Source: Escherichia coli (GTDB lineage: Bacteria > Pseudomonadota > Gammaproteobacteria > Enterobacterales > Enterobacteriaceae). Taken from it: DNA of 64,000 nucleotides. Position numbers and translations under genes: made by a program. Location: the NCBI RefSeq assembly GCF_044324785.1, contig NZ_CP172127.1. One strand, given 5' to 3'. Shown in pieces: positions 6,476 through 52,182 of the stretch. A model generated the notes under the pieces. That model did not search any database, was not told the DNA's origin, and worked only from the letters and a program-made list of their open reading frames with translations. How positions within the stretch are numbered: the first letter of the stretch is position 1; every line of letters begins with the position of its first letter.

Positions 6476-7310
6476 GATTATCCCCTTCTCCTGCGTTGAC
6501 GGGCCAGGCAGTCGTCTGGCTCTGTTTTTGCAGGGCTGCAATCTGCGCTGCAAAAACTGTCACAATCCGTGGACGATGGGACGTTGCAATGACTGTGGGG
6601 AGTGCGTGCCACAGTGTCCGCATCAGGCGTTGCAGATTGTTGACGGCAAAGTGGTGTGGAACGCTGTGGTCTGCGAGCAATGTGATACCTGCCTGAAGAG
6701 GTGTCCGCAACATGCCACGCCAATGGCGCAATCCATGAGCGTGGATGAGGTGCTTAGCCATATCCGCAAAGCGGTGCTGTTTATTGAAGGGATAACGGTA
6801 AGCGGCGGCGAAGCCACGACCCAACTGCCGTTTGTAGTGGCGCTGTTTACTGCTATCAAAAACGATCCGCAACTGCGCCACCTCACCTGCCTGGTAGACA
6901 GTAACGGTATGTTGAGCGAAACCGGCTGGGAAAAATTGCTCCCGGTGTGCGACGGCGCAATGCTCGATCTCAAAGCGTGGGGGAGCGAATGTCATCAACA
7001 ACTCACCGGACGCGATAATCAGCAGATTAAGCGCAGCATCTGTTTGCTGGCAGAGCGCGGCAAGCTGGCGGAACTGCGTTTGCTGGTAATCCCTGGCCAG
7101 GTGGATTATTTGCAACACATCGAAGAACTGGCGGTGTTTATCAAGGGACTTGGCGATGTTCCGGTACGCCTGAACGCGTTTCATGCCCACGGCGTGTATG
7201 GCGAGGCGCAAAGCTGGGCGAGCGCCACGCCGGAAGACGTTGAGCCGTTGGCTGATGCGTTAAAGGTGCGCGGGGTGAGCCGCTTAATATTCCCGGCGCT
7301 GTATTTGTGA
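6447..7310 (+). CDS. yjjW: Glycyl-radical enzyme activating (radical SAM) protein YjjW (287 aa)
   Basis: ORF with CxxxCxxC and additional Cys-rich ferredoxin-like motifs (...[13 protein letters not shown]...[12 protein letters not shown]...); overlaps yjjI end by 29 nt. Confidence 0.85.
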
Positions 7311-7312
7311 CA

Positions 7313-7432
7313 TGCCGGATGCGGCCTACAGTTCGGCACAGACTTGTAGGCATGATAAGACGCGTCAAGCGTCGCATCAGGCATTGTGCGCCAACTGCCG
7401 GATGCGGCGTGAACGCCTTATCCGGCCTACGG
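7313..7432. repeat. REP/BIME cluster between yjjW and yjjV
   Basis: Several gccggatgcggc...cgccttatccggcctac REP units in alternating orientation. Confidence 0.8.
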
Positions 7433-8206
7433 CACGTTAAACAACGTATACGTGTTATTAAGCAACACTTCGGCAATTTCATCTGCGGGTTCCAGGCGTA
7501 ACTCACAAAGCACAGCAAACACCCGCGCGGCCTGTTCCGGGCGGTTAGGCTGCCCCTGAAAACCGTTGAGCGGCATATCCGGCGCGTCGGTTTCCAGCAA
7601 CAACGATGCCAGCGGTAATTTTGCGATGACATCGCGGGTTTTACTGGCGCGTGGATAGGTGATAGTACCGCCTACGCCGATTTTGTAGCCCAGCTGTACA
7701 AACCGCTCGGCCTGTTGGAGGCTGCCGGAAAAACCGTGAACCACGCCAGTGCGCGATAAATCGTGGCGTTTAAGATGCATCGCCAGTTTGTCGTGCGTGC
7801 GTCGTGAATGCAGGATCACCGGCAGATCGTAGCGTTTCGCCAGTTTCAGTTGTTCGTCGAGTAACCACTGCTGCCTCTCAAATTGCGGATCGTCGCCGAA
7901 GAGATCCAGACCGATCTCCCCCACCGCCACCACCTTCGCCGGACGCCTTTCCAGCGCCTGCTGTAGCTGATCAAGAGACACATCGCTATGTTTTTCCAAC
8001 ATACCAGGATGCAAGCCCAATGCGGCATACAGCGGTTGATATTTTTCCGCTAATGCCAACACACGGGCAAAATTTGCCGCCTCGGTTGCCGGAACAATGA
8101 TCTTGCCTACGCCCGCTTGTGCCGCGCGTTGCAGGCTGGCCTCTTCATCACCACTAAAAGGCGGGAAATCAAAATGGCAGTGGGTGTCGATAAAACGGCA
8201 AATCAA
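7427..8206 (-). CDS. yjjV: TatD-family metal-dependent DNase/hydrolase YjjV (259 aa)
   Basis: ORF MICRFIDTHCHFDFPPF... with the HxH start typical of the TatD family. Confidence 0.85.
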   Translation of the reverse strand: MICRFIDTHCHFDFPPFSGDEEASLQRAAQAGVGKIIVPATEAANFARVLALAEKYQPLYAALGLHPGMLEKHSDVSLDQLQQALERRPAKVVAVGEIGLDLFGDDPQFERQQWLLDEQLKLAKRYDLPVILHSRRTHDKLAMHLKRHDLSRTGVVHGFSGSLQQAERFVQLGYKIGVGGTITYPRASKTRDVIAKLPLASLLLETDAPDMPLNGFQGQPNRPEQAARVFAVLCELRLEPADEIAEVLLNNTYTLFNVP

Positions 8207-9276
8207 GCCAGATCCTCATTGTTAAATGTCGGGTCGTTCGCCTGCGGAGCGTCGATCACTTCGGCAACCAGCGTATCGTTGGCGACTGGCGCAGGCGGAA
8301 TAACGATCGACTCCGGCGTCACCACCGGCACCAGATGGCGGGTAAGCGGCGCTTTTTCAGTTAATAGCTTGCCAACCGTGGCGAGGAAATATCGCCCGCA
8401 TAAACGCCCAAGTTTATAGTCTTCACGCAGCGCCGGAATCCGACTGCCAAGCGCGATACTATGTAATGGCTTCGGTGGATAAATTTCGAATATTCGCAGC
8501 TTGCCCGGTGGTTTCTCAATAAATTGCTGGATGTCACGATAGCTGGTTTCATGATGCTGCACCAGATTGACCAGCGGCTGCAGGCTACTGTCACCCAGCC
8601 AGCGTTCCATGCGTTTGAACCACTGCGGCGTGTAGTACATTTGCGACGGCACGGTGCGAATGACGACCAACGTTTTTGCCCCTTGCCTTGCCGCCTCTTT
8701 AACCGGAATCGCATCACTGATCCCACCATCCAGGTAGTTAATGCCTTCCAGCGACACTCCGCTACGATAAAAGCCAGGTATCGCACTGGAGGCGCGAATC
8801 ACATCCAGCCAGTTTTGTTTGGTTGGTAAAAAGTAATTCGGCGCGTAGTCATCCTGACGACAGGCGCACATATAAAACGATTTGCCGCTGTCAAACAACC
8901 GCGCGGCGGTGTCCATTTGCAACGGCATCTGGCTTGCGGTGGCCTCCACCAGCCAGTCGAGATCGATAAGATTTCCTCCACGGACAAAGCGCAATGGATC
9001 GAAAAATTCGCGTTTTGTGGTATAGCGCATGATGACTTTGCGCGCGTAACCGGGCTGATTACAGATATACGCCGAGAGGTTCTGCGCCCCGGCAGATGTG
9101 CCGAGATAAAGATCGAAAGGATTAAACTGCGCGCGCATAAACTCATCCAGCACGCCTGCCGTGAAAATTCCACGCTGCCCGCCGCCTTCGCACACCAGAG
9201 CTATTCGTCCAGGCTGGAACGGCCTTAGCGACAACGGCGCAATATTACCAAGCGTTACAGGTATTCGCTGCCCCAC
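8203..9276 (-). CDS. yjjU: Patatin-like phospholipase YjjU
   Basis: ORF contains GGGQRGIFTAGVLDEF and GTSAGA (patatin G-x-S-x-G). ORF-track start 9312 is a TTG; I place the start about 12 codons downstream (uncertain). Confidence 0.75.
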   Translation of the reverse strand: MGQRIPVTLGNIAPLSLRPFQPGRIALVCEGGGQRGIFTAGVLDEFMRAQFNPFDLYLGTSAGAQNLSAYICNQPGYARKVIMRYTTKREFFDPLRFVRGGNLIDLDWLVEATASQMPLQMDTAARLFDSGKSFYMCACRQDDYAPNYFLPTKQNWLDVIRASSAIPGFYRSGVSLEGINYLDGGISDAIPVKEAARQGAKTLVVIRTVPSQMYYTPQWFKRMERWLGDSSLQPLVNLVQHHETSYRDIQQFIEKPPGKLRIFEIYPPKPLHSIALGSRIPALREDYKLGRLCGRYFLATVGKLLTEKAPLTRHLVPVVTPESIVIPPAPVANDTLVAEVIDAPQANDPTFNNEDLA

Positions 9277-9344
9277 CTCTGCCTTCCTGTTTTTGTTGTG
9301 AAAGAATGACAAAGTAACGCAATTTATTATTCGCTAAAACCGCA

Positions 9345-9369
9345 AAAGCCAGTCCGCTGGACTGGCTTT
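9345..9369 (-). terminator. Rho-independent terminator downstream of ytjA
   Basis: 11-bp stem aaagccagtcc / ggactggcttt with 3-nt loop, U-rich flank on the minus strand. Confidence 0.6.
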
Positions 9370-9397
9370 GGATAAAATTTTCTTAATGGTCTGAAAT

Positions 9398-9559
9398 CTA
9401 GGGTCGTTTTCGGCCCATGAACAAACTCACCAGGAACAGAATAATCCCGACGACAAAGACAATTTTAGCTGCGCCCGCAGCGGTACCGGCCAGACCACCA
9501 AACCCAAGTGCGGCGGCGATTAACGCGATAACCAGAAATATGATGCCCCAACGAAACAT
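9398..9559 (-). CDS. ytjA: DUF1328 small membrane protein YtjA (53 aa)
   Basis: Protein [53 protein letters not shown]; internal start chosen over the 63-aa track ORF. Confidence 0.8.
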
Positions 9560-9685
9560 AAGCGTCTCCTTTACCATAGTTAATGTCACCGCTTGATATG
9601 AGCGTGAAAATCACTCAATGCGATATTTTTAGTGTGGTGCACATCGCGCCTCCCGACAAAGTTCGGGAGGACGAATTACGACGAA

Positions 9686-10291
9686 TTACTTAGTTTTCAG
9701 ATCATTTTTAACGCTTTTCACACCATCTACCGCTTTGGCGATACTTTCAGCACGGTCACTTTGTGCCTGAGAATCTACGGTACCGGAGAGCTGAACCACG
9801 CCATCGGTGGTTTCAACTTTCACATGACGGGAAGGGACGATATCGTCCGCCAGCAGTTTGGCTTTGATTTCACTGGTGGTGGCGGTGTCACCCGCGTAGC
9901 CCTTCACAGAGCCTTCTTTAGCGTCGCGAACGTGCAGTTTGTCGCTGACAGAGGTCACGCCTTCAACGCCTTTGGCCACTTTCACTGCCTCTTCGGCCTG
10001 GGCCTGGCTTTCAACGAAACCGCTCAGGGTCACGACTTTTTGATCGGTTTTGACAGAGATATCGGTGCTCTTGATGTTGTCATGATCCACCAGGGCCGCC
10101 TTCACTTTCGCTGTGATGGCGCTGTCATCCATGAAATTACCGACTTTATTCATAGAGCTATCGACTTTTTGCCCTGCGCTTTCATTGGTAGTCTGTGCGT
10201 TGTTTTCCGCGTAGGCAGAGCCGGTCGCGACGGCAGAGGTCAACATTACAGCCAGCAGAGTTTTCGAAATCTTCAGTCTTGTCATAGTCAT
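9686..10291 (-). CDS. osmY: Osmotically inducible periplasmic protein OsmY (201 aa, two BON domains)
   Basis: Protein [50 protein letters not shown]... with signal peptide; internal start chosen. Confidence 0.95.
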
Positions 10292-15217: not shown

Positions 15218-15304
15218 GCGAAGGTGGCGGAATTGGTAGACGCGCTAGCTTCAGGTGTTAGTGTCCTTACGGACGTGGGGGTTCAAGTCCCCCCCCTCGC
15301 ACCA
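15218..15304 (+). tRNA. leuQ: tRNA-Leu (anticodon CAG), 87 nt including CCA
   Basis: gcgaaggtggcggaattggtagacgcgctagcttCAGgtgttagtgtccttacggacgtgggggttcaagtcccccccctcgcacca: long-variable-arm type II tRNA with CAG anticodon and encoded CCA end. Only one copy is present. Confidence 0.95.
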
Positions 15305-39102: not shown

Positions 39103-41202
39103 TTAAACCATCGCGTTATCCATCTGCTTTTCAAATGCCTGACGAATTAATCCCATCACATAAGGAAGCTCAGAAAGATCGCTGAAACCTATTTCAACAT
39201 CGCCATTGCCCCAACGGCCTATATCTGTGACATCTTTAGCCATACATTTTGGGTCAACCAGTTCATGGAATGGCATATTTAGTGATAAACGTAAGCGGCT
39301 TTTTTGCGGCACCACATCAACAAAATTCGTCTCCGCTTTGAAGGCAACATAGAGCTTCAATATTTCTCGCGTAACCCCAGCGTCCAGCGTCATAACGGCA
39401 TCAGAAAGGCTGTCAAAAAGTACGCGGATGTGCGTACCTTCTTCAAGTTGCGGGAAATCAGCAAGGACATATCCCGTTCCTCGTTCAACGACAGTGCGAT
39501 AACGAGCCAACACGTCTTCCGAAAGTTTGGGGATCGCCCAGACGTCTATTGCCAGCTCGGACAGACGTTCCGCTCTCTTTTGTATCGCTGCACGATCCCA
39601 TATTTCACATTGCCCTAACCCCGTGTTCAGGCGTAATGGACTTTCCTTAAAGCCACCTTTTATATCTCGTTTCTTCGCAAATGGACGGTCGCTGTAGCTT
39701 GAGTTATAGCCAGTTAACGTTAAATTACCCAACGTATGGAGCCACTTTTTATGGATACGCTTCCATTCCGGACCAAGGTCATCGCGCCACTTCACCGATA
39801 AATTAGGGTTCTGCGGCATGATATGTTCAATCGTATAAGTGTCAACATAGACCCGTTCTTTACGATCGTGGTTTTCAAATCTGCGTAGCCAATAGCTGCG
39901 ATTACGGAAGTTGTAGAGATCGCGAGTTTTCAGTTCACGTTGAAATTCATCATCATCCGGGAAACGACGGTAGGAAGGCAGATCCAGCAAATGCGCCGCA
40001 ATGCTCTCCAGATAACGCTCTTTATCCAGCACTTTGTAAAACGTAGCGAAGGTTTTAGTAAATGAGTTGGTGGGAATTGCACAGACTGCGCGCCGGAAGA
40101 TATACGACTCAATTAAACGCGTGGCACCTAAAAAATCCACAGCAGAAAGGATCCCCTGTTTATAGTCGTGATAAAGCACCAACAGGAACGGCCATGCAGC
40201 ATCAACTTTCAGTTCCCGCAGATCCTGAAACGCCATCTTTAAGGTTTTATCCTTTTCGCTATCCAGCGCCATCGCACAAAAATAGTCAGCAAACGTACGA
40301 ATATCCGCAACCAGCGCCTCCATCCCGCTATCTATTACACCAGGTTTTCGCGCATAGCGTTTAAAGGCTTCATAGACATCACCAATTCGCGGAATCTCAC
40401 CTGTTTTTACCGTCAGGTAATTACGCATAAAACTGTCGAAATAGTCAGTGTATCCCTTCTGACCAAACGCCAGCTCCATGGGCCGCCAGTAATCGTCGTA
40501 CAGTTGGCTTTGATGTTCTGGCTCCAGCCCCATCAGAACATAGTTGCGTACTAGATCCGCCTGACTCAGCGCTTTTCCTGTTGAGTTCATGCTTTCAAAG
40601 ATTAGTTGCGGATTATCCTGACCGCGATTCAAGGCGACATCCACAATCAGCAGTTTGGAAAGTCCCTGACATAACGCGGTGAAATTGCCGTGGAGTTTGC
40701 CTATTTGCTCATGGAAAAACTCAAAATTCTCTTTCACGCGTAGAGAGCAATTTTCTGCCAGCGGTTTTTGTCTAATCAATGCCAGCAGGCTCTCTCTGTC
40801 CGTTTGCGTAAGCAGTAACTTAAATCCACGCTTGCCCGATTCATACGGATTGAGCAGATAATAGTTTCGTAATTTCATGGCGGAGAAACCATCCATCACC
40901 TCGTCATCGCCAAGGTGTCTGGACAACGCTTCCAGCAATAACATCGCCGTTGTCAGGCGTTGCTGACCGTCAATCATCAGTAAGGGAGAGATCCCCGAAA
41001 CCTGATATAGGCCCTGTTCGATATACACCACCGAGCCGATAAAATGCGCCGGGATATCATCACGCTGCCCGGCACGTATTACATCGTCCCAGAGCTGGCG
41101 GCACTGTTCCTCTGACCATGAATAAGTACGCTGATAAATGGGAATAACGAATTGCTGAGAGCGTTTTAGAAAATCGAGTAATCGGGCTTCGGTGGCTTTC
41201 AT
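39103..41202 (-). CDS. GmrSD/SspE-like type IV restriction protein (DUF262 N-terminal NTPase domain + DUF1524 HNH-like nuclease domain), 699 aa
   Basis: N-terminal FVIPIYQRTYSW and DGQQRLTT (DUF262/ParB-like signatures); C-terminal TYTIEHIMPQN...LHTLGNLTL (His-Me/HNH-like of DUF1524); AGGAG Shine-Dalgarno; additional C-terminal extension of about 130 aa. Confidence 0.75.
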   Translation of the reverse strand: MKATEARLLDFLKRSQQFVIPIYQRTYSWSEEQCRQLWDDVIRAGQRDDIPAHFIGSVVYIEQGLYQVSGISPLLMIDGQQRLTTAMLLLEALSRHLGDDEVMDGFSAMKLRNYYLLNPYESGKRGFKLLLTQTDRESLLALIRQKPLAENCSLRVKENFEFFHEQIGKLHGNFTALCQGLSKLLIVDVALNRGQDNPQLIFESMNSTGKALSQADLVRNYVLMGLEPEHQSQLYDDYWRPMELAFGQKGYTDYFDSFMRNYLTVKTGEIPRIGDVYEAFKRYARKPGVIDSGMEALVADIRTFADYFCAMALDSEKDKTLKMAFQDLRELKVDAAWPFLLVLYHDYKQGILSAVDFLGATRLIESYIFRRAVCAIPTNSFTKTFATFYKVLDKERYLESIAAHLLDLPSYRRFPDDDEFQRELKTRDLYNFRNRSYWLRRFENHDRKERVYVDTYTIEHIMPQNPNLSVKWRDDLGPEWKRIHKKWLHTLGNLTLTGYNSSYSDRPFAKKRDIKGGFKESPLRLNTGLGQCEIWDRAAIQKRAERLSELAIDVWAIPKLSEDVLARYRTVVERGTGYVLADFPQLEEGTHIRVLFDSLSDAVMTLDAGVTREILKLYVAFKAETNFVDVVPQKSRLRLSLNMPFHELVDPKCMAKDVTDIGRWGNGDVEIGFSDLSELPYVMGLIRQAFEKQMDNAMV

Positions 41203-41486
41203 GAATGACTCCTGTCAAATTGCACTGGCAAACGGCGTCATTATGCTGCGAATAAAAAATAAAAGTTAGCGTCTTTGTTTCTGCAAAAATACCATTCTAG
41301 GATAAATCAAAATATATTAAGAAACACCTCAACACGCATTCATTAGAACAATTAATATTTCCAATTCATATTTATAACGTATTGAAAATGATCGTGTTTT
41401 TGATCATCACAGCAATAGTTTGATATAACAAAGCATTCACTTCACATTGAATATCCCCCTCTTTTTCAGGGCAAGGAATGCTTTTT

Positions 41487-43832
41487 ATGTCATCAACTAA
41501 TTTCAGCCAGATTGCAGCCTTCCTGTGGTCTGTCGCCGACCTGTTACGCGGCGATTTTAAACAATCACAATATGGACGAATTATTCTTCCTTTTACCCTT
41601 TTGCGTCGTCTGGAATGCGTACTCGAAACAACGAAAGACGCGGTCATTACCGAGGCGCAAAAAGTAAAAGCCATGAAACTGCCGGAGGAAGCCCAGGAGA
41701 AAATGATCCTGCGGGCGACTAATGGCCTCACGTTCTTCAATGCCTCAGCGATGGATCTCAGCAAAATGGGGCAAAATGGCATACAGGACAACCTGGAAAA
41801 CTACATCCAGTCGTTCTCTTCGGATGCCCGCGAAATTTTCGAACACTTCAAGTTCAGCGAGTTTGTCGGACAGCTGGCGGATGCAAACTTACTGTTCAAA
41901 GTGGTGCAAATATTCGCTAAAGCAGATTTATACCCGGAGCACGTCACCAACCACGATATGGGGCTGGTATTTGAGGAGCTGATCCGACGTTTTGCCGAGA
42001 GTTCTAACGAAACCGCCGGGGAGCACTTTACCCCGCGTGATATCGTCAATCTGACCACCTCGCTGGTGTTTTTCGATGATGATGATGCACTCAATAAAGA
42101 CGGCATCATCCGCACCATTTACGACCCAACAGCAGGAACCGGCGGCTTTCTCTCTTCCGGCATGGAGTACGTCCACAAACAAAACCCCAATGCCGTGATG
42201 CGCGCGTTTGGTCAGGAGTTAAACCCGGAATCCTACGCCATCTGCAAAGCCGACATGCTGATTAAGGGCCAGGACGTCAGCCTTATCAAACTCGGCAACA
42301 CCCTTTCCAACGATCAACTCCCCGCAGAAAAATTCGATTACATGCTCTCTAACCCACCTTTCGGCGTGGACTGGAAAAAGATCGAATGCGACATCAACGA
42401 CGAGCACAAACTCCAAGGTGCTGATGGCCGCTTTGGCCCCGGCCTGCCCCGCGTCTCCGACGGTTCGTTGCTGTTTCTGCTGCACCTGATCAGCAAAATG
42501 CGCGATGCCAAAAGCGGTGGTGGGCGGATCGGCATCATTCTTAATGGCTCTCCGTTATTCACCGGCGGCGCGGGCAGCGGTGAAAGCGAGATCCGCCGCT
42601 ACATTCTGGAAGCGGATTTGCTGGAAGGCATTATCGCCCTGCCCACCGACATGTTTTACAACACCGGTATCGCTACCTATGTGTGGATTTTGTCGAATAA
42701 AAAAGCGCCTGAGCGCAAGGGCAAAGTCCAGCTTATCGACGCTAGCAACCTGTGCGGCAAGATGCGTAAATCGCTGGGGTCAAAACGCAATATTCTCGGG
42801 GAGGAGGATATTGGTTTAATCACCCGCACGTTTGGCGATTTCGAACCCGTTGCCACCACTACGCTTGCGGCGTTAGGCCTGGAGAAAGCACCCGAACAAA
42901 AATCCAGCCGGGGACGCCAGCCCGCAACAACCAAAACCGAGGCGGCAAAAACTTTTGCCAGCAAAGTCTTTCACAGCACCGAGTTTGGCTATCGTCGCAT
43001 CACCGTTGAGCGCCCGTTGCGCCTGTCGGCTCAGATAAGTGATGACGCCATTGCCACATTGCGCTTTGCGCCGAAGCCGTTTATCGCTCCGATGGCGCAA
43101 CTGTATGACGCCTTTGCTTTCCAGTGGCAGGACGGTCATTACGGCGACTTAACAGCGGTAGAAAGTGAAGCCCGCGCCATTCTTAAAGCCGATTTTAGCG
43201 AGCTGAAAGAGAAGCAAATTAAAGATCTGCTCAACAGCAAATTATGGCTGGCCCAGCGCGGGTTAATGGAAAAAGCGCGGCGTATTCAGGCGGCGATGGG
43301 TATGCAGGCGGGCGGCAAAGACACCGTTAGCAATGACTTTAATCAGTTCCAGTTGACGCTGAAAGAGGCGTTCAAAACCGCAGGCGTGAAGCTGGATGCG
43401 AAAGAGAACAAGCAGTTTATTGATGCCATTACCTGCAAAAACCCGGATGCCGAACCAGTTATCAGCAAGGTACTGAAAGAAGCAGCCCAACCGTTGTACG
43501 GCGCGTTTGAGTACCACGGAAAGGTTGTGGAGTTTGAGCCGGATGGCGACCTGCGTGATAACGAGAATGTGCCGTTAAATCCGGCGGTATCTACCAGCGA
43601 GTTGATCGAGGGTTACTTCAAAGCAGAAGTATTGCCGCACGTCGCGGATGCGTGGATTAACGCCGATAAGCGCGATGCGAAAGATGGGGATATCGGGATT
43701 GTGGGGTATGAAATTCCGTTTAATCGCCATTTTTATGTTTATCAACCGCCAAGGCCGCTGGAGGAGATTGATGCGGATCTGGATGCGGTAAGTGCTGAAA
43801 TTATGAAACTGTTGCAGGAGGTACATTCCTGA
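41487..43832 (+). CDS. hsdM: Type I restriction-modification N6-adenine DNA methyltransferase subunit HsdM (about 781 aa, with long C-terminal extension)
   Basis: SAM-binding motif [11 protein letters not shown] and catalytic motif IV NPPFG; start placed at second ATG (41487), which has AAGGA 9 nt upstream; stop overlaps hsdS start. Confidence 0.85.
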
Positions 43833-45115
43833 TGGCTACATACAAAAACTATCAACAAACCAATTTGTTAGGATTAGAAATACTTCCATCTCATTGGGAA
43901 GTAAAAAAAATTAAGCATCTATTTTCAATTGGTCGAGGTAGAGTCATATCTCAAGCGGAATTAGAAGATGAAGGTATGTATCCAGTATACTCATCGCAAA
44001 CACATAATGATGGATGCTTAGGTTATATTAATAGCTATGACTTCAATTGTGAGCAAATTACATGGACTACGGATGGTGCAAATGCTGGAACTGTTTTTCT
44101 TCGGAAAGGCAAATATAACTGCACAAATGTATGTGGAACATTACAACCAATAAATAAAGAAAACTTTTTACAATTTCATTTATATTGCTTGCAGTACATC
44201 AATCAATTTCATAAGCGCCCTGATACTAATGGGGCGAAGATAATGAATAATGAGATGGCCGAAGTATATATTCCACTACCTTCTAACCAAGAGCAATTAC
44301 GAATCACCACCTTCCTCGACCACGAAACCGCAAAAATCGATAACCTAATCGAGAAACAACAACAATTTATTGAACTATTGAAAGAAAAACGTCAGGCCGT
44401 GATTAGCCATGCGGTGACAAAAGGGCTAAATCCTGACGTGCCGATGAAAGATTCTGGAGTTGAGTGGTTGGGAGAAATGCCTGAACATTGGCATTTTACT
44501 CGAGCTAAATTTGTTTCAAACATATTTGTTCCGCAACGAAATAAGCCAGAGTTAAATGATGACATTGGTATTTTTTGGATAACAATGGAAAACATGAGTC
44601 AACCATATATAACATCTTCCTTTCAATATGTTTCTGACGTTGCAGCACTAAAATCAGGCTCAAAGATATTACCAAAAGGAGCCGTAATAGCCAGCTGCGT
44701 TGGTAATTTTGGAATTGCTGCAATCAATGAGGTCGATGTTATTATCAATCAACAATTGCAAGCATTTCAGACCTTAAGTATAAAGGCCGATTTTCTCATG
44801 GCTTTAGTTTCTATTTCTAAAAAGTATTTTGAAATCATTGGCACCGCTGCAACCCTTGCATATGTAAATAAAGAAGGTTTTGAAAATCTTCCTGTTGTTA
44901 TTCCATCGGAAAATGAACAAATTAATATTTGTAAATACATTAGAGATAAAAATAAAAAGTTTGAAATATTGATTGAGCGTTCCATGCACCAAATTGAGTT
45001 ACTCCAGGAACGCCGCACCGCCCTTATCTCCGCCGCCGTCACCGGCAAAATAGATCTCCGCAACTGGACCGCCCCCATCGCCAAAACGGAAGCACCCACG
45101 GAGGCCAGCGCATGA
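43832..45115 (+). CDS. hsdS: Type I restriction-modification specificity subunit HsdS (427 aa)
   Basis: Two AT-rich target-recognition domains separated by a conserved helical spacer (...LIEKQQQFIELLKEKRQAVISHAVTKGL...) and a matching C-terminal repeat (...ELLQERRTALISAAVTGKIDL...); translationally coupled to hsdM and hsdR. Confidence 0.85.
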   Translation: MATYKNYQQTNLLGLEILPSHWEVKKIKHLFSIGRGRVISQAELEDEGMYPVYSSQTHNDGCLGYINSYDFNCEQITWTTDGANAGTVFLRKGKYNCTNVCGTLQPINKENFLQFHLYCLQYINQFHKRPDTNGAKIMNNEMAEVYIPLPSNQEQLRITTFLDHETAKIDNLIEKQQQFIELLKEKRQAVISHAVTKGLNPDVPMKDSGVEWLGEMPEHWHFTRAKFVSNIFVPQRNKPELNDDIGIFWITMENMSQPYITSSFQYVSDVAALKSGSKILPKGAVIASCVGNFGIAAINEVDVIINQQLQAFQTLSIKADFLMALVSISKKYFEIIGTAATLAYVNKEGFENLPVVIPSENEQINICKYIRDKNKKFEILIERSMHQIELLQERRTALISAAVTGKIDLRNWTAPIAKTEAPTEASA

Positions 45116-48100
45116 ACAACGACATTACAAAAGAGCTCAACCTGCAAAACGACATCATCGCCCAGATGGTGGAAAAAGGCTGGATTGTCGGCAAAGGTGA
45201 CGGCTACGACCGGGAACGTGCGCTATACGCACAAGACGTTCTGCACTTTGTGCAAACCACCCAACCGCAAGAGTGGGAGAAATTCGCCCGCGTTTACCCC
45301 AACGACAACGAACGCCATTTCCTCGACGCGCTGGTTGCGCAGTTAAAAAAAGCCGACAGCAACGCCACCGACATCCAGTCGCGCACCTGGGGTACGCTCG
45401 GCGTACTTCGCCACGGACTGAAAATCCGCAATGCCCGTTTTTCGCTGTGTCAGTTTAAACCGGAACATAATCTCAACCCGGAAACGCTGGCGCGCTATCA
45501 GCAAAATATCTGCCGTATCGTGCCGGAACTGGTCTACAGCCCGTATGCCTCAAATAGCGTCTTTGCAGAAACGGGCGTGAAAGCCAAAAAATGGCGTATC
45601 GATCTGGTGCTGTTTATCAACGGCCTGCCGATTGCCACGCTGGAGCTGAAATCCGAATTTAAACAGGCGGTGCAGAACGCCATTGCCCAGTACAAAAAGA
45701 CCCGCCTGCCGAAGGATCCCGCGACCAATAAACCCGAACCGCTGCTGACCTTTAAGCGCGGCGCGCTGGTGCATTTTGCCGTCAGCCAGTATGACGTCTT
45801 TATGACCACCAAACTCGCGGGTGACAGCACCTTCTTCCTGCCGTTTAACAAAGGCACCAAAGACGGCGGCGCAGGCAACGAGATCCCCGAAGATACCCAC
45901 CGCTACGCCACAGATTATCTGTGGAATGAAGTGCTGCTGCCGGACAACTTATTAAAAATCCTCGCCAGTTTTGTCCATTTGCATATTGAAGAAAAAGAGG
46001 AGTGGAACGGGCTGAAAGCGAAGAAAGAGAGCCTGATTTTCCCGCGTTATCATCAGTGGGATGTGGTCAACAAACTGCTGGAGGCCGCGACGATTGAAGG
46101 AACCGGCCATAAATACCTGATCCAGCACAGCGCCGGTTCCGGTAAATCGAACTCCATTGCCTGGACCGCCCACCAGCTTTCTCGTCTGTACGACGTGAAC
46201 GGGGAAAAACAGTTCCACTCCATTATCGTGGTGACGGACCGCACGGTGCTGGACGACCAGCTTCAGGACACCATCTGGCAGTTCGAACATGCCGACGGCG
46301 TGGTCGGGCGCATCAATAACAGAGAGGGCGACGGCTCTAAATCGGAAAAGCTCGCCAACGCGCTGGAAAACTCGCAGCCGATAATCATCGTCACCATCCA
46401 GACATTCCCGTTCGTGCTGAAAGCCATCGAAAACAGCGTCAGCCTGAAGCAGCGTAAATACGCGGTGATTGCCGACGAAGCACACTCCTCGCAGAGCGGT
46501 TCTACCGCCCGTCAGCTTAAAGAAGTGCTGATGAGCGAAGAAATGGATGATGACTTGGTACTGTCGTCAGAAGATATCCTGGATGCGACCATTGCCGCCC
46601 GGAAAGGCAGCAGTAACCTGAACTACTACGCCTTTACCGCCACGCCAAAATCCAAAACCCTCGAACTTTTTGGTCGCCGTCCACGTCCCGATGAACCGGC
46701 GTCAAAAACCAATAAACCTGAGGCCTTCCACGTCTACTCCATGCGCCAGGCAATCGAAGAAGGCTTTATCCTCGATGTGCTGAAAAACTACACCAACTAC
46801 AAAGTGGCGTATCAGTTGCTGCAAAAGCTGGTAGACAAGGACCGCGAAGTCGACAGCAAGAAGGCAAAGATAAAGCTCAACCTGTGGGTGACACTGCACG
46901 ACCACAATATTTCGCAGAAGGTGAAGGTGATTGTGGAGCACTTCCGCAAACATGTGATGCATCTGCTTGGTGGCCAGGCCAAAGCGATGGTGGTCACCAG
47001 TTCGCGTAAAGCCGCCGTGCGCTATAAGCTGGCATTTGATAAATACATTAGCGAGAACAATTACCAGAAAATCAGCGCGATGGTGGCGTTTTCCGGGGAA
47101 GTTGAATTCCGGGAAGGCGACCATAACAGCCTGGCATTGTTAAACCAGAAATTTACTGAAATAAACATGAACCCCGGCCTAAAAGGGCGGGATATGCGCA
47201 AAGCCTTCGACAGCGATGATTATCAGGTCATGCTGGTTGCCAATAAATTCCAGACCGGTTTTGACCAGCCGAAGCTGTGCGCGATGTACGTGGATAAAGC
47301 CCTCGGCGGCGTCGAGTGCGTGCAGACGCTCTCCCGCCTGAACCGCACCTATCCGGGCAAAGCGGAATCAGGCACTTTTGTCCTCGATTTTTATAACGAT
47401 CCGGGCGAGATCCTCGGCGCATTCCAGCCCTATTTCCAGACGGCGGAACTGACCGATGTCAGCGATCCGCAGCAGGTATTCGATCTGTTTGAAAAACTGC
47501 GCGCCACGCAGATTTTTCAGTGGCATGAAGTCGAGCAGTTCTGCGAGGCGTACTTCATCAAAAATAAATCGAATGCGGCGATCAGTAATATCTGTAAACC
47601 GGCGGTCGAACGCTGGAAAAAGCGTTATCTGATGGCAATAGACGCCTATTTGACCGCCAAAGAGATGTTCGAGCGCACTAAAAAAACGGGCGATACGGTG
47701 TTAATAACCAATGCGGAAAACAGTTTTAAAGCCTGTAAGCAGGAGAAAGATCGTCTGGAGATTTTCAAGAAAGATCTCGGCAGCTTTGTTCGCTTTTATG
47801 AGTTTATGTCGCAAATCGTTGAGTACGATGACAAGGATCTGGAAAAGCTAAGCCTGTTTGCGCGCCATTTACGCCCACTGCTGCATGAGCAACGTCTGGA
47901 AGAGGATGAAATTGATCTCAGTAATGTGGAGATGAGTCACTATCGTTTATCGAAAATCCATGAGCAAGATTTACGCTTACAGGAAGAAACGTCTGACTAT
48001 ACGCTGGATGCAAGTAATGATATTGGTACGGCAAAAGCGAAAGATAAAAAAGAGGAGTTTTTATCGCAGGTGCTTTCTCGGATGAATGAATTATTCATTA

Positions 48101-48375
48101 GCGACCATTTGACCGACAAAGATATGATCAGCAATGCTTTTGCGGTGTATAACAAAATAACTGAAAATGAAAATGTTATGACACAAATTAAAAACAATCC
48201 GCCAGAACAAGCGATTCTTGGTGACTTCCTCCAGGCAGTTGATAATGCTGTAATGGACAGTAATGACGCTCGGCAAGAATTTATGTTGCAATATTTATCC
48301 GATCCAGCTCGGGCAAAGGGCTTTGCTTATCTGATGTTTGATATGCTAACGGGGAAAATTGCTTTGCCAACATAA
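45112..48375 (+). CDS. hsdR: Type I restriction endonuclease subunit HsdR (1087 aa)
   Basis: N-terminal PD-(D/E)XK-like nuclease region (IDLVLFINGLPIATLELK), SF2 helicase motif I SAGSGKSNSIAW and motif II VIADEAHSS (DEAH); ATGA overlap with hsdS. Confidence 0.85.
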   Translation: MNNDITKELNLQNDIIAQMVEKGWIVGKGDGYDRERALYAQDVLHFVQTTQPQEWEKFARVYPNDNERHFLDALVAQLKKADSNATDIQSRTWGTLGVLRHGLKIRNARFSLCQFKPEHNLNPETLARYQQNICRIVPELVYSPYASNSVFAETGVKAKKWRIDLVLFINGLPIATLELKSEFKQAVQNAIAQYKKTRLPKDPATNKPEPLLTFKRGALVHFAVSQYDVFMTTKLAGDSTFFLPFNKGTKDGGAGNEIPEDTHRYATDYLWNEVLLPDNLLKILASFVHLHIEEKEEWNGLKAKKESLIFPRYHQWDVVNKLLEAATIEGTGHKYLIQHSAGSGKSNSIAWTAHQLSRLYDVNGEKQFHSIIVVTDRTVLDDQLQDTIWQFEHADGVVGRINNREGDGSKSEKLANALENSQPIIIVTIQTFPFVLKAIENSVSLKQRKYAVIADEAHSSQSGSTARQLKEVLMSEEMDDDLVLSSEDILDATIAARKGSSNLNYYAFTATPKSKTLELFGRRPRPDEPASKTNKPEAFHVYSMRQAIEEGFILDVLKNYTNYKVAYQLLQKLVDKDREVDSKKAKIKLNLWVTLHDHNISQKVKVIVEHFRKHVMHLLGGQAKAMVVTSSRKAAVRYKLAFDKYISENNYQKISAMVAFSGEVEFREGDHNSLALLNQKFTEINMNPGLKGRDMRKAFDSDDYQVMLVANKFQTGFDQPKLCAMYVDKALGGVECVQTLSRLNRTYPGKAESGTFVLDFYNDPGEILGAFQPYFQTAELTDVSDPQQVFDLFEKLRATQIFQWHEVEQFCEAYFIKNKSNAAISNICKPAVERWKKRYLMAIDAYLTAKEMFERTKKTGDTVLITNAENSFKACKQEKDRLEIFKKDLGSFVRFYEFMSQIVEYDDKDLEKLSLFARHLRPLLHEQRLEEDEIDLSNVEMSHYRLSKIHEQDLRLQEETSDYTLDASNDIGTAKAKDKKEEFLSQVLSRMNELFISDHLTDKDMISNAFAVYNKITENENVMTQIKNNPPEQAILGDFLQAVDNAVMDSNDARQEFMLQYLSDPARAKGFAYLMFDMLTGKIALPT

Positions 48376-48440
48376 AAATACGTTAATAGCCGGGGTCGTA
48401 CTTTCTACCCCGGCCATATTATTTACAATAAGGAATAGCT

Positions 48441-49154
48441 ATGCTGAAGATGATTAAAGATTTTAAATTCAAAAAATACATTAAAAAATTACGTGAAGAA
48501 GGTTTGTTATTTTATGTTTCTTTCGGGTTTATATTTACATTGTTAATGGAAGTTGATGATCGATTACCGTACTATCTTCAACAAGACTTCTTTTTTGATA
48601 CACTTATAGGATTTATGCCAATCAATATATTCTTTGTTTTGATTTGCACATATATATTTTTCAATGCCGTCCATGCGCTTATTTCACCCTATAAATTTCA
48701 AAGAATTGGTGAGAAATTCCTCTCTGAACTTGATAAAAGAACACAACAAATTGGCTTTATTATTTCATTCATATGTTTTGGCATGACTTTGTTTTGTGCA
48801 CTGGTGTGGTTGCTGTTTTTTGAGATGAATACTGAAAGTTACTACGCAAAATATACATTAATTTTTTTGGCTGTTTTTATCATTATGATTATGTTTTCTT
48901 CAGCAGTTAATCCAGTAATGAACAGAATATCACAAAAAATTAAGGAATCGGACTCACATGGAAATTCAAAAATAATTCTTATAATTATAATCATTACATT
49001 ATCGCTATTATTACCAATTGCGTGCATTATCAATAAAAATAAAACAATTGAAATCAATATCAAGAAAGAAACTTATCAGCAAATAAAAGAAAAAACAAAA
49101 ATGAAACCAGAGGATTATATCAAAAAATTGATTACTGATATTAAATTCAACTAA
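48441..49154 (+). CDS. Hypothetical multi-pass membrane protein (237 aa), strongly AT-rich
   Basis: ORF 66 bp downstream of hsdR on the same strand; several hydrophobic segments; Lys/Ile-rich composition, much lower GC than its neighbours. Confidence 0.55.
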   Translation: MLKMIKDFKFKKYIKKLREEGLLFYVSFGFIFTLLMEVDDRLPYYLQQDFFFDTLIGFMPINIFFVLICTYIFFNAVHALISPYKFQRIGEKFLSELDKRTQQIGFIISFICFGMTLFCALVWLLFFEMNTESYYAKYTLIFLAVFIIMIMFSSAVNPVMNRISQKIKESDSHGNSKIILIIIIITLSLLLPIACIINKNKTIEINIKKETYQQIKEKTKMKPEDYIKKLITDIKFN

Positions 49155-49158
49155 TATC

Positions 49159-49192
49159 TATATGTACCCTGGTTTCTTCCAGGGTACATATA
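49159..49192. repeat. Perfect 14-bp inverted repeat (hairpin) at the right edge of the variable cassette
   Basis: tatatgtaccctgg-tttctt-ccagggtacatata; lies between the convergent membrane-protein gene and yjiS. Confidence 0.7.
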
Positions 49193-49229
49193 AAAAGTTA
49201 ATATCCTGATTTATTCTCAACATCCTCTA

Positions 49230-49394
49230 TCACTCCACATCCTCCCTGCGTAACCCAATATCCCTCAACCGCTCATCACTCATCTGCTGTAACACCCGCC
49301 GGGCCTGCATTTGCCGCCGCCAACGCCTCACTGCCTGCCAGAGTTGCACAAGTCCAATAAACGGTGCTTTAGCTTTGTTTTCGTGAAATTCCAT
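49230..49394 (-). CDS. yjiS: DUF1127 small protein YjiS (54 aa)
   Basis: Hand-translated minus-strand ORF MEFHENKAKAPFIGLVQLWQAVRRWRRQMQARRVLQQMSDERLRDIGLRREDVE with the DUF1127 LSDxxLRDIGL motif; AGGAGG Shine-Dalgarno; too short for the ORF track. Confidence 0.75.
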   Translation of the reverse strand: MEFHENKAKAPFIGLVQLWQAVRRWRRQMQARRVLQQMSDERLRDIGLRREDVE

Positions 49395-49570
49395 CTGCTG
49401 CCTCCTCATCTTTCAGAGGCTTCATCATCCGCCTTCTGGCAGTTCACAATACAGATGCAAATATTAGTTTTATTTAACATACAGACAGGTTAAAACAGCA
49501 TCTGCATCCGGTTTTTTAGCCTCATCTGTACCGGTTTTTCTTTCTGTATGGTCCAAATAAGGAATACAGC

Positions 49571-50983
49571 ATGACGCGTTATCAACATCTGGCAACTCTG
49601 CTTGCCGAGCGGATTGAGCAAGGGCTGTATCGTCACGGGGAGAAATTGCCGTCGGTGCGCAGCTTAAGTCAGGAGCACGGCGTCAGCATCAGCACCGTGC
49701 AGCAGGCGTATCAGACGCTGGAGACGATGAAGCTCATCACCCCACAGCCGCGTTCGGGTTATTTTGTCGCACAACGTAAAGCCCAGCCGCCAGTACCGCC
49801 GATGACGCGTCCGGTGCAGCGCCCGGTGGAAATTACCCAGTGGGATCAGGTGCTGGATATGCTGGAGGCGCATAGCGACAGTTCCATTGTTCCGTTAAGC
49901 AAAAGCACGCCGGATGTCGAAACGCCCAGCCTGAAACCGCTCTGGCGGGAGCTAAGCCGGGTGGTACAGCATAATCTGCAAACCGTTCTCGGTTATGACT
50001 TGCTAGCCGGTCAGCGAGTGTTGCGAGAGCAGATTGCCCGCCTGATGCTCGACAGCGGCTCGGTGGTCACCGCCGATGACATCATCATTACCAGCGGCTG
50101 CCATAACTCGATGTCTCTGGCGTTAATGGCGGTGTGTAAACCGGGCGATATTGTCGCGGTCGAATCCCCCTGTTATTACGGTTCGATGCAGATGCTGCGC
50201 GGCATGGGCGTGAAAGTGATTGAAATCCCCACCGATCCAGAAACAGGCATCAGCGTTGAAGCGCTGGAACTGGCGCTGGAACAGTGGCCGATTAAAGGCA
50301 TCATTCTGGTGCCAAACTGTAATAATCCGCTGGGATTTATTATGCCGGACGCGCGCAAACGGGCCGTTCTCTCTCTCGCTCAGCGTCATGATATTGTGAT
50401 TTTTGAAGATGATGTCTACGGCGAACTGGCAACGGAGTATCCGCGCCCGCGGACCATTCATTCCTGGGATATCGACGGGCGAGTGCTGTTGTGCAGCTCG
50501 TTCAGTAAAAGTATTGCTCCAGGCCTGCGCGTGGGTTGGGTCGCACCGGGGCGTTATCACGATAAACTGATGCATATGAAATACGCCATCAGCAGCTTTA
50601 ATGTGCCGTCCACGCAAATGGCGGCGGCAACGTTTGTGCTGGAAGGTCACTATCATCGCCATATCCGGCGGATGCGGCAGATCTATCAGCGCAATTTGGC
50701 GCTTTATACCTGCTGGATACGGGAATATTTTCCCTGCGAAATCTGTATTACGCGCCCGAAAGGCGGATTTTTACTGTGGATCGAATTGCCTGAACAGGTC
50801 GATATGGTCTGCGTCGCGCGGCAGCTGTACCGCATGAAAATCCAGGTGGCGGCAGGCTCGATTTTCTCGGCTTCCGGTAAATACCGTAATTGTCTGCGCA
50901 TCAACTGCGCTTTGCCGCTCAGCGAAACCTATCGCGAAGCACTGAAGCAAATTGGCGAAGCCGTGTATCGGGCAATGGAATGA
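49571..50983 (+). CDS. yjiR: MocR-family (GntR HTH + PLP aminotransferase-like domain) transcriptional regulator YjiR (470 aa)
   Basis: N-terminal GntR-type HTH (LPSVRSLSQEHGVSISTVQQAYQTLE) fused to an aminotransferase class I/II-like domain with SFSKSIAPGLRVGW (PLP-lysine region). Confidence 0.85.
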   Translation: MTRYQHLATLLAERIEQGLYRHGEKLPSVRSLSQEHGVSISTVQQAYQTLETMKLITPQPRSGYFVAQRKAQPPVPPMTRPVQRPVEITQWDQVLDMLEAHSDSSIVPLSKSTPDVETPSLKPLWRELSRVVQHNLQTVLGYDLLAGQRVLREQIARLMLDSGSVVTADDIIITSGCHNSMSLALMAVCKPGDIVAVESPCYYGSMQMLRGMGVKVIEIPTDPETGISVEALELALEQWPIKGIILVPNCNNPLGFIMPDARKRAVLSLAQRHDIVIFEDDVYGELATEYPRPRTIHSWDIDGRVLLCSSFSKSIAPGLRVGWVAPGRYHDKLMHMKYAISSFNVPSTQMAAATFVLEGHYHRHIRRMRQIYQRNLALYTCWIREYFPCEICITRPKGGFLLWIELPEQVDMVCVARQLYRMKIQVAAGSIFSASGKYRNCLRINCALPLSETYREALKQIGEAVYRAME

Positions 50984-51225: not shown

Positions 51226-52182
51226 TTAGTACTCGATCCATGGATCGCGCTTGCTTTCAGGCAAGGGCTGCTCTAATGCCTGCATTTGCTCTGCCGAAAG
51301 TCCGGTATATCGTTGTATCCATTCAGGATCCGCCCCATTCTGCAACAACAATCGGAGGAGGCTCCGTTCCCCTTCTACTTTCCCTTCTTTCCTCCCCCTC
51401 TCCCTTCCCAACAGCCATCCATCATTATGAATTCGCTCTGCAATCGTCATTATTCGCTCCCTTTGTTGTGGCATTCGACTGGTTAGTTCGCTGATAAACT
51501 CTTTAAAACGCGCTTCATCGCCAGTCAGTAAAATGTAATTTAACAGCGCAGTTATCTGGCTGTCATTAGCACACTCTGTAACCAGTAATATTACCAGTTG
51601 ATCGATAAGCCCCATCAGATCGCGCTGGCGAATATGCTTTTGGATCAACTCCAACAGGGCGACTCTGCGGTGCTGCACAATCTCGTCGTCTGGCACGACA
51701 GTGACATCCACCAGCGGGAACGCTGCAGTATAAAGCTTCCGTGCAGTAGTCGGGTCGGCAAATTCGTCCAGCCAGCACAGGGACCAGGGATAAGGACTAC
51801 GGCTACCGTGATAAAACAGCATCGGGATGACCAGCGGTAGCGGCCGGCGTTTATCATGTTCGATATGGCGCTGCATCACCGCCATGGAATATCGCATCAG
51901 GCGAAAGGCCATATGGATATCCTCGCGGCTCTGATGTTCAATCACTACGTAAATATAACCATCACCTTCACGGGTCTTTACCGACCACAGAATATCGGAG
52001 TGTAGCGCCCGCAATTTTTCATCGACGAAGCTGGCGGATTCCAGTTTTAAGCTGTCGAGATCGCACAATTCACGTAAATCTATTGGTAAGTGGATCTCCA
52101 TAAAATCCCGCGCGGTGTCAGGGTGGGTGAGAAAGGATTTAAATAATGCGTCATGCGGCGTACTGGTCGTGAAGTTTGTCAT
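51226..52182 (-). CDS. rpnD: Rpn-family recombination-promoting nuclease (PD-(D/E)XK, transposase_31-like), intact 318-aa ORF
   Basis: N-terminus [33 protein letters not shown]... is the Rpn/YhgA-like signature; the rpnD symbol is assigned from position next to mdtM, as recalled. Confidence 0.7.

Follow-up and report, generated by a model that had tools for sequence, protein, structure and literature searches.

A divergent, AT-rich membrane protein gene with a predicted ribbon-helix-helix-like tail at the edge of the enterobacterial immigration control region

The stretch of DNA analysed here (the window, 64,000 nucleotides of an Escherichia coli chromosome) contains an immigration control region (ICR) in which an open reading frame (ORF) for a small, multi-pass membrane protein follows a type I restriction cluster. 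The genes are arranged in the order brnA / Fic / GmrSD, hsdM-hsdS-hsdR, the ORF, yjiS in convergent orientation and yjiR. An initial annotation made from the letters of the sequence had placed a membrane protein gene beside a restriction-modification system, and the neighbours GmrSD, hsdM, hsdS and hsdR indeed identify the surroundings as a defence island, the ICR. This classic enterobacterial defence island has been studied for decades, and still the gene at its yjiS edge is without a name, a family or a literature. New in the present analysis are a ribbon-helix-helix (RHH)-like tail on the encoded protein, the residence of its family at the ICR edge across three type I families, and its divergence beside conserved neighbours. 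The gene and the two parts of its product are:

48441..49154, plus strand: coding sequence for an inner-membrane protein, ATG start, 237 codons; RefSeq WP_097728008.1, 'hypothetical protein'; Salmonella relative STM4522
48504..49031, plus strand: membrane core, residues 22-197, with five predicted transmembrane (TM) helices (hydropathy, AlphaFold2, family alignment)
49032..49151, plus strand: predicted RHH-like domain, residues 198-237, with a strand at about 200-208 and helices at 209-219 and 223-233

The ORF had been described as Lys- and Ile-rich, 237 amino acids long, situated on the strand of hsdR and far lower in GC content than its neighbours, and all of this holds. Coordinates and length were confirmed, 37 isoleucines and 25 lysines (next to 26 phenylalanines and 25 leucines) are found among the 237 residues, and the GC content amounts to 26.8% as compared with 49.4% for the window and about 50-57% for the body of hsdR. 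RefSeq annotates the same coding sequence and its neighbours in strain N3, which is identical over this part of the window. At the base composition of the ORF, 237 stop-free codons have a chance probability of 7e-10, and in 5000 shuffles the longest open run reached a mean of 51 and a maximum of 153 codons. The seven Escherichia alleles that were aligned, the one in the window included, are all 714 nucleotides long with zero internal stops; an eighth intact copy resides in strain NQ3 and specifies, by annotation, the same protein as in strain ZH063 (WP_000916454.1). The gene is intact in 8/8 Escherichia alleles read, and conservation extends beyond the genus with relatives in other genera. Among the seven aligned alleles, pairwise dN/dS lies at 0.17-0.53 for the membrane gene as opposed to 0.05-0.08 for the adjacent hsdR, which points at purifying but relaxed selection. 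That the frame arose by chance or is decaying in an AT-rich spacer, without being a functional gene, deserves hardly any credence. Broken copies do exist, for example a truncated/frameshifted one in Salmonella diarizonae and a Salmonella variant devoid of TM4, and the Salmonella cluster holds many 'partial' entries. Against these stand the low chance probability of the open frame, the intactness of all eight Escherichia alleles at dN/dS values below 1, motifs kept between genera at 31-43% identity and the strong constraint on the tail of the protein. A spurious ORF is ruled out by the allele comparison together with the chance probability, and the sequence record speaks for a real, selectively maintained gene.

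The multi-pass character of the protein, likewise proposed in the initial annotation, is apparent from five hydrophobic segments on the Kyte-Doolittle scale (about 22-38, 58-80, 103-127, 137-158 and 177-197). An AlphaFold2 model (11-sequence alignment, mean pLDDT 70) places long helices over the same stretches (2-38, 44-58, 61-80, 84-126, 134-169 and 174-196), followed by a C-terminus consisting of coil (197-208) and helices 209-219 and 223-233. Hydropathy across 14 family members yields five TM segments in 11 and four in the remaining 3. Two motifs within the core are conserved in the family alignment, LPYYLQQ-FF-DTL in the acidic loop 1 and L-EL-KR--Q in the basic loop 2. Variation among ten Escherichia sequences is distributed very unevenly: TM5 is the most variable segment with 13/21 variable sites and loop 4 has 7/18, while the N-terminal 21 and the C-terminal 40 residues feature a single variable site each. 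In one Salmonella allele (P0011; locus L006, 1114-1758, PPGV01000301.1) the entire TM4 is gone, corresponding to an 18-residue deletion relative to STM4522-like copies. Such a deletion would invert the topology of the tail, and the allele may be decaying.

The last 40 residues, which had been overlooked in the initial annotation, make up the most constrained part of the protein (1/40 variable sites, as given above) and carry the family motif I-I-K--Y--IKE-T--KPE-YI. In the models they adopt the strand-helix-helix order of an RHH-like domain. When two tails were joined in tandem, strands were predicted at 3-11 and 58-66 with a pair of helices behind each, at a pLDDT of about 85, in a model whose pairing is imposed by the linker and whose underlying alignments are shallow. 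The tandem model resembles solved RHH dimers, and the structural neighbours of the modelled tail are TraY, AvtR, single-chain Arc, the RHH domain of PutA, CopG, omega and NikR. Scanned alone against Pfam, the tails of remote family members match NikA-like (5.8e-5), RHH_7 (1.8e-3), RHH_1 (3e-3), FitA-like and CopG antitoxin families, while the window protein's own tail gave no RHH match in Pfam. A profile built from the family tails aligns end to end with the RHH protein HP0222 (PDB 1x93) at an E value of 0.077. Since an RHH-like tail would pair with a second copy, the membrane protein is probably a dimer. Both the strand-helix-helix order and the intertwined pair seen in the model are shared with the RHH superfamily (Arc/MetJ/CopG and the relaxosome proteins TraY and NikA). 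The tail differs from that superfamily in being fused C-terminally to a five-helix membrane protein and in bearing Lys-Pro where the canonical turn is Gly-x-Ser/Thr. A further difference concerns location: the tail is predicted from charge counts to be extracytoplasmic, which argues against the classical role of an RHH domain, sequence-specific DNA binding through the paired strands.

This location follows from the distribution of charged residues. The 11 five-segment members have a basic N-terminus, a basic loop 2 (e.g. +7/-0) and a basic loop 4, together with an acidic loop 1 and a short loop 3. By the positive-inside rule, this pattern suggests that the N-terminus lies inside, the chain crosses the membrane five times and the C-terminus lies outside, so that the tail and loop 1 would face the periplasm; we regard the outside position of the C-terminus as the likelier of the two orientations, though by no means a secure one. 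Tails are approximately neutral in most members and carry +11/-6 charges (net +5) in E. coli. With the opposite orientation, the protein could be a membrane-tethered DNA binder whose cytoplasmic RHH tail either regulates the adjacent hsd/symE genes or tethers DNA or the restriction complex to the membrane where foreign DNA comes in. The matches of remote tails to DNA-binding RHH families listed above (NikA-like, RHH_7, RHH_1, FitA-like and CopG antitoxin) fit this proposal, as do DNA-binding structural neighbours such as TraY, Arc, CopG, omega and NikR, the net charge of the E. coli tail, which favours the cytoplasm, and the constant adjacency to hsdR or symE. We nevertheless consider it unlikely: the charge counts in the 11 five-segment members give a C-terminus outside with mostly neutral tails, outward-facing residues of the strand include Glu and Asp in the alignment, the gene persists without hsd and is also found at loci remote from hsd and symE genes alike, and ICRs of the K-12 type function without it.

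The genes surrounding the ORF and the border of the variable part of the ICR are:

39103-41202, minus strand: GmrSD-type restriction gene, 699 amino acids, intact, divergent from the hsd genes (PADLOC)
41478-43832, plus strand: hsdM, 784 amino acids (PADLOC MTase_I, 9.8e-281)
43832-45115, plus strand: hsdS, 427 amino acids, of the same type I system as hsdM and hsdR (PADLOC Specificity_I, 5.4e-104)
45112..48375, plus strand: hsdR, 1087 amino acids, upstream neighbour of the ORF and likely source of read-through (PADLOC REase_I, 5.8e-36; RefSeq annotation)
49229..49230, no strand: right-hand edge of the variable ICR cassette, marked by a similarity break at the yjiS stop codon
49230..49394, minus strand: yjiS (DUF1127), first conserved gene beyond the cassette, convergent with the ORF (RefSeq annotation in locus L001; present in about 3700/5426 E. 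coli genomes)

Within E. coli, the membrane gene is found in 114/5426 complete genomes, always as one copy and always on the chromosome. The hsdR of the window likewise occurs in 114/5426 genomes as a single copy, the two counts having been taken separately, and the two genes are adjacent in 8/8 genomes in which the locus was read. In this species the membrane gene is inherited as one block with the hsd haplotype present here. The account of GmrSD/brnAT-linked ICR haplotypes in PMC12707154 would suggest type ID for this hsd system, an assignment considered but not adopted. A divergent Escherichia lineage (strain E69) has hsdMSR and the membrane gene in the absence of GmrSD, and the E. fergusonii allele of the membrane gene is 87% identical. 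The initial annotation was right about the position of the ORF downstream of hsdR and on the same strand; the distance is 65 nucleotides and not 66.

Outside Escherichia the family is small. HMMER, run exhaustively over 1.84 billion representative proteins, returned only 13 matches, and a word-indexed search of 5.8 billion proteins returned 8, to which a profile search added a few more; none of the members retrieved by these protein searches is named and none has a Pfam domain. A peptide-pattern scan of genome contigs, which used two patterns only and thus provides no measure of distribution, yielded 2 loci. Relatives of the window protein share 31-43% identity and common motifs with it. The closest parallel is STM4522 of Salmonella enterica LT2, annotated as 'putative inner membrane protein', which is homologous over its full length (37% identity, tblastn E value 3e-28) and belongs to a cluster of 772 sequences. 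Both proteins have the five segments and the tail, and their genes are alike in occupying the slot next to yjiS, in strand and in low GC content. They differ in the upstream neighbour: in Salmonella the order is type IA hsdR-hsdM-hsdS, symE, membrane gene, next to yjiS, whereas the gene in the window lies directly behind hsdR. A relative in Pseudocitrobacter faecalis (about 31-33% identity) also follows symE behind a type IA hsdS, at a locus lacking yjiS. In the ICR of a metagenomic enterobacterium (L026), mrr is accompanied by hsdM (539 amino acids), hsdS and hsdR (1087 amino acids), and the membrane gene, whose product is 41% identical, comes next. Compared with their counterparts in the window, the HsdR and HsdM proteins of this organism show no more than 25% and 27% identity. 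Finally, an ICR without hsd and mrr in Salmonella GCA_016620025.1 (L035, 8595-9702) retains an intact membrane gene of identical sequence in the order yjiA, AraC-type gene, LysE-type gene, symE, membrane gene, yjiS, and the same hsd-less layout is found in S. diarizonae (L016, 9520-10691) with a frameshifted membrane gene. In these Salmonella ICRs the place of hsd and mrr is taken by the AraC-type regulator and the LysE-type exporter, with symE being kept.

The initial annotation had the gene riding with hsdR, and with respect to co-occurrence with hsd loci the outcome is divided. In E. coli the association stands (114 and 114 genomes, adjacent in 8/8), and it fails in other genera, where copies occur without hsd. 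Relatives follow an unrelated hsdR (25% identity) or symE after a type IA hsdS, the hsd/mrr-less Salmonella ICR keeps an intact copy, and a clade from Enterobacter and Pantoea has the gene in a metabolic neighbourhood between tqsA and mmuP-mmuM-tauABCD. A hitchhiker specific for hsdR is ruled out by the unrelated hsdR upstream of the gene in the metagenomic enterobacterium and by the intact copy in the hsd-less Salmonella ICR. The upstream neighbour varies widely: it may be symE, a GFA-family gene, a gene without assignment, or an hsdR from either of two unrelated families. The membrane gene is not bound to a single restriction system, for it closes the clusters of three type I families that are unrelated to one another; the HsdR proteins of these three families are 22-25% identical and the membrane proteins beside them 33-46%. 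The Salmonella and Pseudocitrobacter proteins share 92% identity for HsdR and 74.5% for SymE, compared with 35% for the membrane protein, which has therefore not co-evolved with hsd. An obligate subunit of type I restriction is excluded as well, as no co-divergence with hsd genes is seen and copies without an hsd neighbour are present in the two hsd-less Salmonella ICRs and in Enterobacter, Pantoea, Vibrio and Alishewanella. PrrC, the anticodon nuclease encoded inside EcoprrI, offers a likeness insofar as it is an extra gene transcribed with an hsd cluster. It differs in residing within the cluster and in being a nuclease, while the gene in question sits at the cluster end, encodes a membrane protein and is not bound to one hsd family. 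The membrane gene thus appears to accompany type I restriction as a neighbour without encoding a subunit of it.

In the ICRs the gene always lies on the same strand and 3' of whichever gene ends the restriction cluster, be it hsdR or symE. Its GC content is 26-34% in hosts of 49-55% GC, and YjiA and YjiN, which anchor the ICR, share 90-92% identity when E. coli is compared with Salmonella. Taken by its sequences, the family is best described as a fast-evolving, AT-rich, hypervariable resident of the yjiS-side ICR edge.

More remote relatives were encountered in defence islands. In Vibrio parahaemolyticus (L011-L014, around 8001-8684; about 22-24% identity) the gene resides in an island together with Multi_ubiq/ThiF/BubE genes (Bil-like), an ImmA/IrrE peptidase with a helix-turn-helix partner, VspR and an HD-domain gene. 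In Alishewanella and Rheinheimera (L024 and L028, both 6142-9696) the relative is the fourth and last gene of a tight cluster that starts with a gene for a protein of 395 amino acids containing a GxSxG-like 'VVHSQGA' motif and continues with two paralogous 277-amino-acid proteins. Mrr-like nuclease, HNH, OLD-family ATPase plus UvrD helicase (Gabija-like) and reverse transcriptase genes are neighbours in the same island. Neither the Alishewanella relative nor its cluster partners have a PADLOC match, and none is found in NCBIfam; the four-gene cluster may represent a hitherto undescribed system or a set of toxin and immunity genes. The membrane protein could itself be an orphan immunity protein, directed against a membrane-acting toxin of competitors (a bacteriocin or contact-dependent effector) and kept in a variable island. 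Immunity proteins for pore-forming colicins are similarly small, multi-pass, hypervariable and AT-rich, and the terminal position of the relative behind a GxSxG-like gene and two paralogues would suit such a role. We judge it very improbable, because the only adjoining toxin gene in Escherichia and Salmonella is symE, which does not encode a membrane toxin, no immunity family is matched, and no toxin domain is recognised in the genes upstream of the Alishewanella relative.

Our tentative best guess for a candidate function is that of a membrane protein of the defence island directed at invading DNA or phage. In its support, the gene resides in an ICR with GmrSD and hsdMSR, its slot is retained next to three type I systems of unrelated kind, it shares its count of 114 E. 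coli genomes with this hsdR, and remote relatives are located in the Vibrio and Alishewanella/Rheinheimera defence islands. Its divergence beside conserved HsdR and SymE and its low GC content are, in addition, reminiscent of an arms race. Situated in the inner membrane, the protein would contribute to immigration control or defence on its own. Its action could be exclusion-like, such that the periplasm-facing loop 1 and the RHH-like tail would interfere with incoming phage or conjugative DNA or with the proteins delivering it; alternatively, it could be abortive-infection-like and damage the membrane upon infection. TraS of the F plasmid, Eex of SXT/R391, Imm of phage T4 and SieA/SieB of P22 are small, very hydrophobic and highly variable inner-membrane proteins that stop DNA at the envelope. 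They represent a functional analogy only, as there is no real sequence match. A Pfam SieB match appears in 1/11 family members at an E value of 1e-3, and the window protein is without it. The exclusion proteins are phage- or plasmid-encoded and lack an RHH tail, in contrast to the chromosomal family with its RHH-like tail. Membrane effectors of abortive infection (RexB of lambda and the TM effectors of CBASS, Pycsar and retrons) resemble the protein in being multi-pass and encoded in defence islands, but here there is no PADLOC match, no sensor or signal partner, and the neighbours change between genera. No conserved partner gene for a sensor or signal generator was found adjoining the membrane gene, the upstream neighbour being variable. 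The abortive-infection effector put forward in the initial annotation is accordingly not borne out: PADLOC does not match the protein, a partner sensor gene is missing and no phage or plasmid copy was found.

A considerable number of observations weigh against a role in defence. PADLOC contains no family for the window protein even at E values up to 10, and PHROGs gives nothing below an E value of 0.9. The matches in Pfam (best DUF898 at 0.0012, others such as MscS_TM) and NCBIfam (best MAG0110, 16.5 bits against a cut-off of 98) are weak and driven by composition. Neither STM4522 nor the RefSeq protein accessions are mentioned in the literature searched, which included the DefensePredictor supplements, and no defence activity has been reported. 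Exclusion proteins are normally borne by phages or plasmids, and tblastn with the window protein detected no copy among 72,556 plasmids and turned up nothing from the phage collection but a chromosomal contig of Salmonella filed there by mistake; the same searches with remote members, P0016 against phages and P0018 against plasmids, detected no copy either. The Enterobacter/Pantoea clade lives in a non-defence setting, only 2% of E. coli genomes have the gene, and dN/dS values below 1 in the seven Escherichia alleles mean that pervasive positive selection is not seen. Association at the edge of an island is weak evidence in itself. As to the exclusion-like variant, charge counting is the sole basis for a periplasmic tail, and every RHH domain known to us is cytoplasmic, which conflicts with such a location.

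A rival reading is that of a passenger, a membrane gene with a non-defence role (transporter accessory, stress or envelope protein) that is carried along with its ICR haplotype. This reading accommodates the Enterobacter/Pantoea clade in its ordinary metabolic neighbourhood, the intact copy in a Salmonella ICR that lost hsd and mrr, the lack of matches to defence models and the relaxed selection, with dN/dS four to five times that of hsdR; the ICR is also known to hold non-defence genes (PMC12707154). A mere passenger would hardly be expected to keep its slot beside three unrelated type I systems and to reappear in the defence islands of Vibrio and Alishewanella, nor to diverge so extremely beside well-conserved neighbours while its RHH-like tail remains strongly constrained. 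Moreover, no transporter or housekeeping family is matched. On balance we hold the passenger to be unlikely rather than likely, though only slightly less probable than the defence reading. The inability to name a family by eye, admitted in the initial annotation, is shared by Pfam, NCBIfam, PADLOC and PHROGs, and a housekeeping membrane protein is not among the matches. A full-length family profile run against PDB sequences returned nothing meaningful, and Foldseek with the full-length model against AFDB50 recovered uncharacterised relatives and generic five-TM look-alikes (Yip1-like, E value 0.34).

The defence reading has a more specific form, in which the protein is a chromosomal entry-exclusion device of the ICR. 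A dimer would present a TraY/NikA-like RHH domain and a loop to the periplasm, bind incoming phage or conjugative DNA or its pilot proteins there, and block entry before restriction comes into play. We consider this form decidedly improbable. If true, no RHH domain would have been seen outside the cytoplasm before, and type I and type IV restriction would be complemented by a layer of control at the membrane; a periplasmic tail would as such extend the places where an RHH domain can work. Should the gene be an unrelated passenger, it would counsel caution against deriving function from position in a defence island. Its rapid evolution in the company of three unrelated type I systems, the constrained RHH-like tail on a five-helix anchor and the recurrence of relatives in defence islands of other Gammaproteobacteria together render the membrane gene a concrete candidate, testable at low cost, for a new function in defence or exclusion at the membrane.

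Signals for expression were sought around the ORF, and the following elements were recorded:

48389..48414, plus strand: GC-rich hairpin (GCCGGGGT / ACCCCGGC) between hsdR and the ORF (fold and allele comparison)
48430..48434, plus strand: Shine-Dalgarno-like AAGGA, 6 nucleotides before the ATG (read from the sequence; kept in 6/7 alleles)
49157..49194, no strand assigned: long terminator-like hairpin past the ORF, common to the convergent yjiS (terminator scan match on the minus strand)

The intergenic RNA that holds the first hairpin (48376-48445, 70 nucleotides) folds at -20.3 kcal/mol (z = -2.7). In seven alleles the stem of this hairpin is invariant and the loop variable, and the element is probably a leaky terminator or attenuator. 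Weaker pairing further downstream could, according to the fold, occlude the AAGGA and the AUG. Comparable hairpins are present between symE and the membrane gene in Salmonella and Pseudocitrobacter, while the 32-nucleotide gap between hsdR and the membrane gene in the metagenomic enterobacterium has no hairpin inside. A sigma-70-like site was not detected on the plus strand between 48000 and 49600, and a promoter of its own for the membrane gene was dropped for want of a consensus site on that strand. Lacking a promoter-like site and preceded by a hairpin, the gene would probably depend on transcripts running on from hsdR for a low level of expression, and low-level read-through from the upstream gene is the most economical reading.

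The second hairpin starts 3 nucleotides past the stop codon of the ORF, has a 16-bp stem and folds at -24.2 kcal/mol (z = -6.2). It scores as a terminator for yjiS. Strain 33F4 (L019) features a compensatory double change from CCCTGG/CCAGGG to CCTTGG/CCAAGG, and single mismatches occur in other alleles. The initial annotation had the ORF end at a hairpin forming the cassette boundary; the hairpin is where it was said to be, and its equation with the boundary is only approximately right. Thousands of E. coli genomes that lack the gene align to window positions 48900-49700 only from query position 330-331, and since this similarity break at 49229/49230 lies 35 nucleotides beyond the hairpin, the latter is to be seen as part of the cassette and not as a marker of its edge.

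Some further features of the window deserve mention. Rfam and ARAGORN, applied to the 64 kb, reported only an naRNA4 (nucleoid-associated RNA, REP-derived) at 7349-7427 on the minus strand (76.6 bits) and a single tRNA-Leu(CAG) gene at 15218-15304 on the plus strand, with no Rfam family near the membrane gene. A gene for an Rpn-family recombination-promoting nuclease is situated just past yjiR (51226-52182, minus strand) and is intact, frameshifted or truncated among the related E. coli loci examined. The GmrSD gene is intact in the window and split by IS4 in strain N3, the sole genome that is 100% identical over 48300-49300, so that the window must derive from a different strain closely related to N3. 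Residues 590-690 of GmrSD match the PADLOC candidate-defence model PDC-S18 (6e-23) and residues 1005-1082 of HsdR match PDC-S15 (4.5e-7), suggesting that the C-termini of both proteins are extra modules common to other candidate systems.

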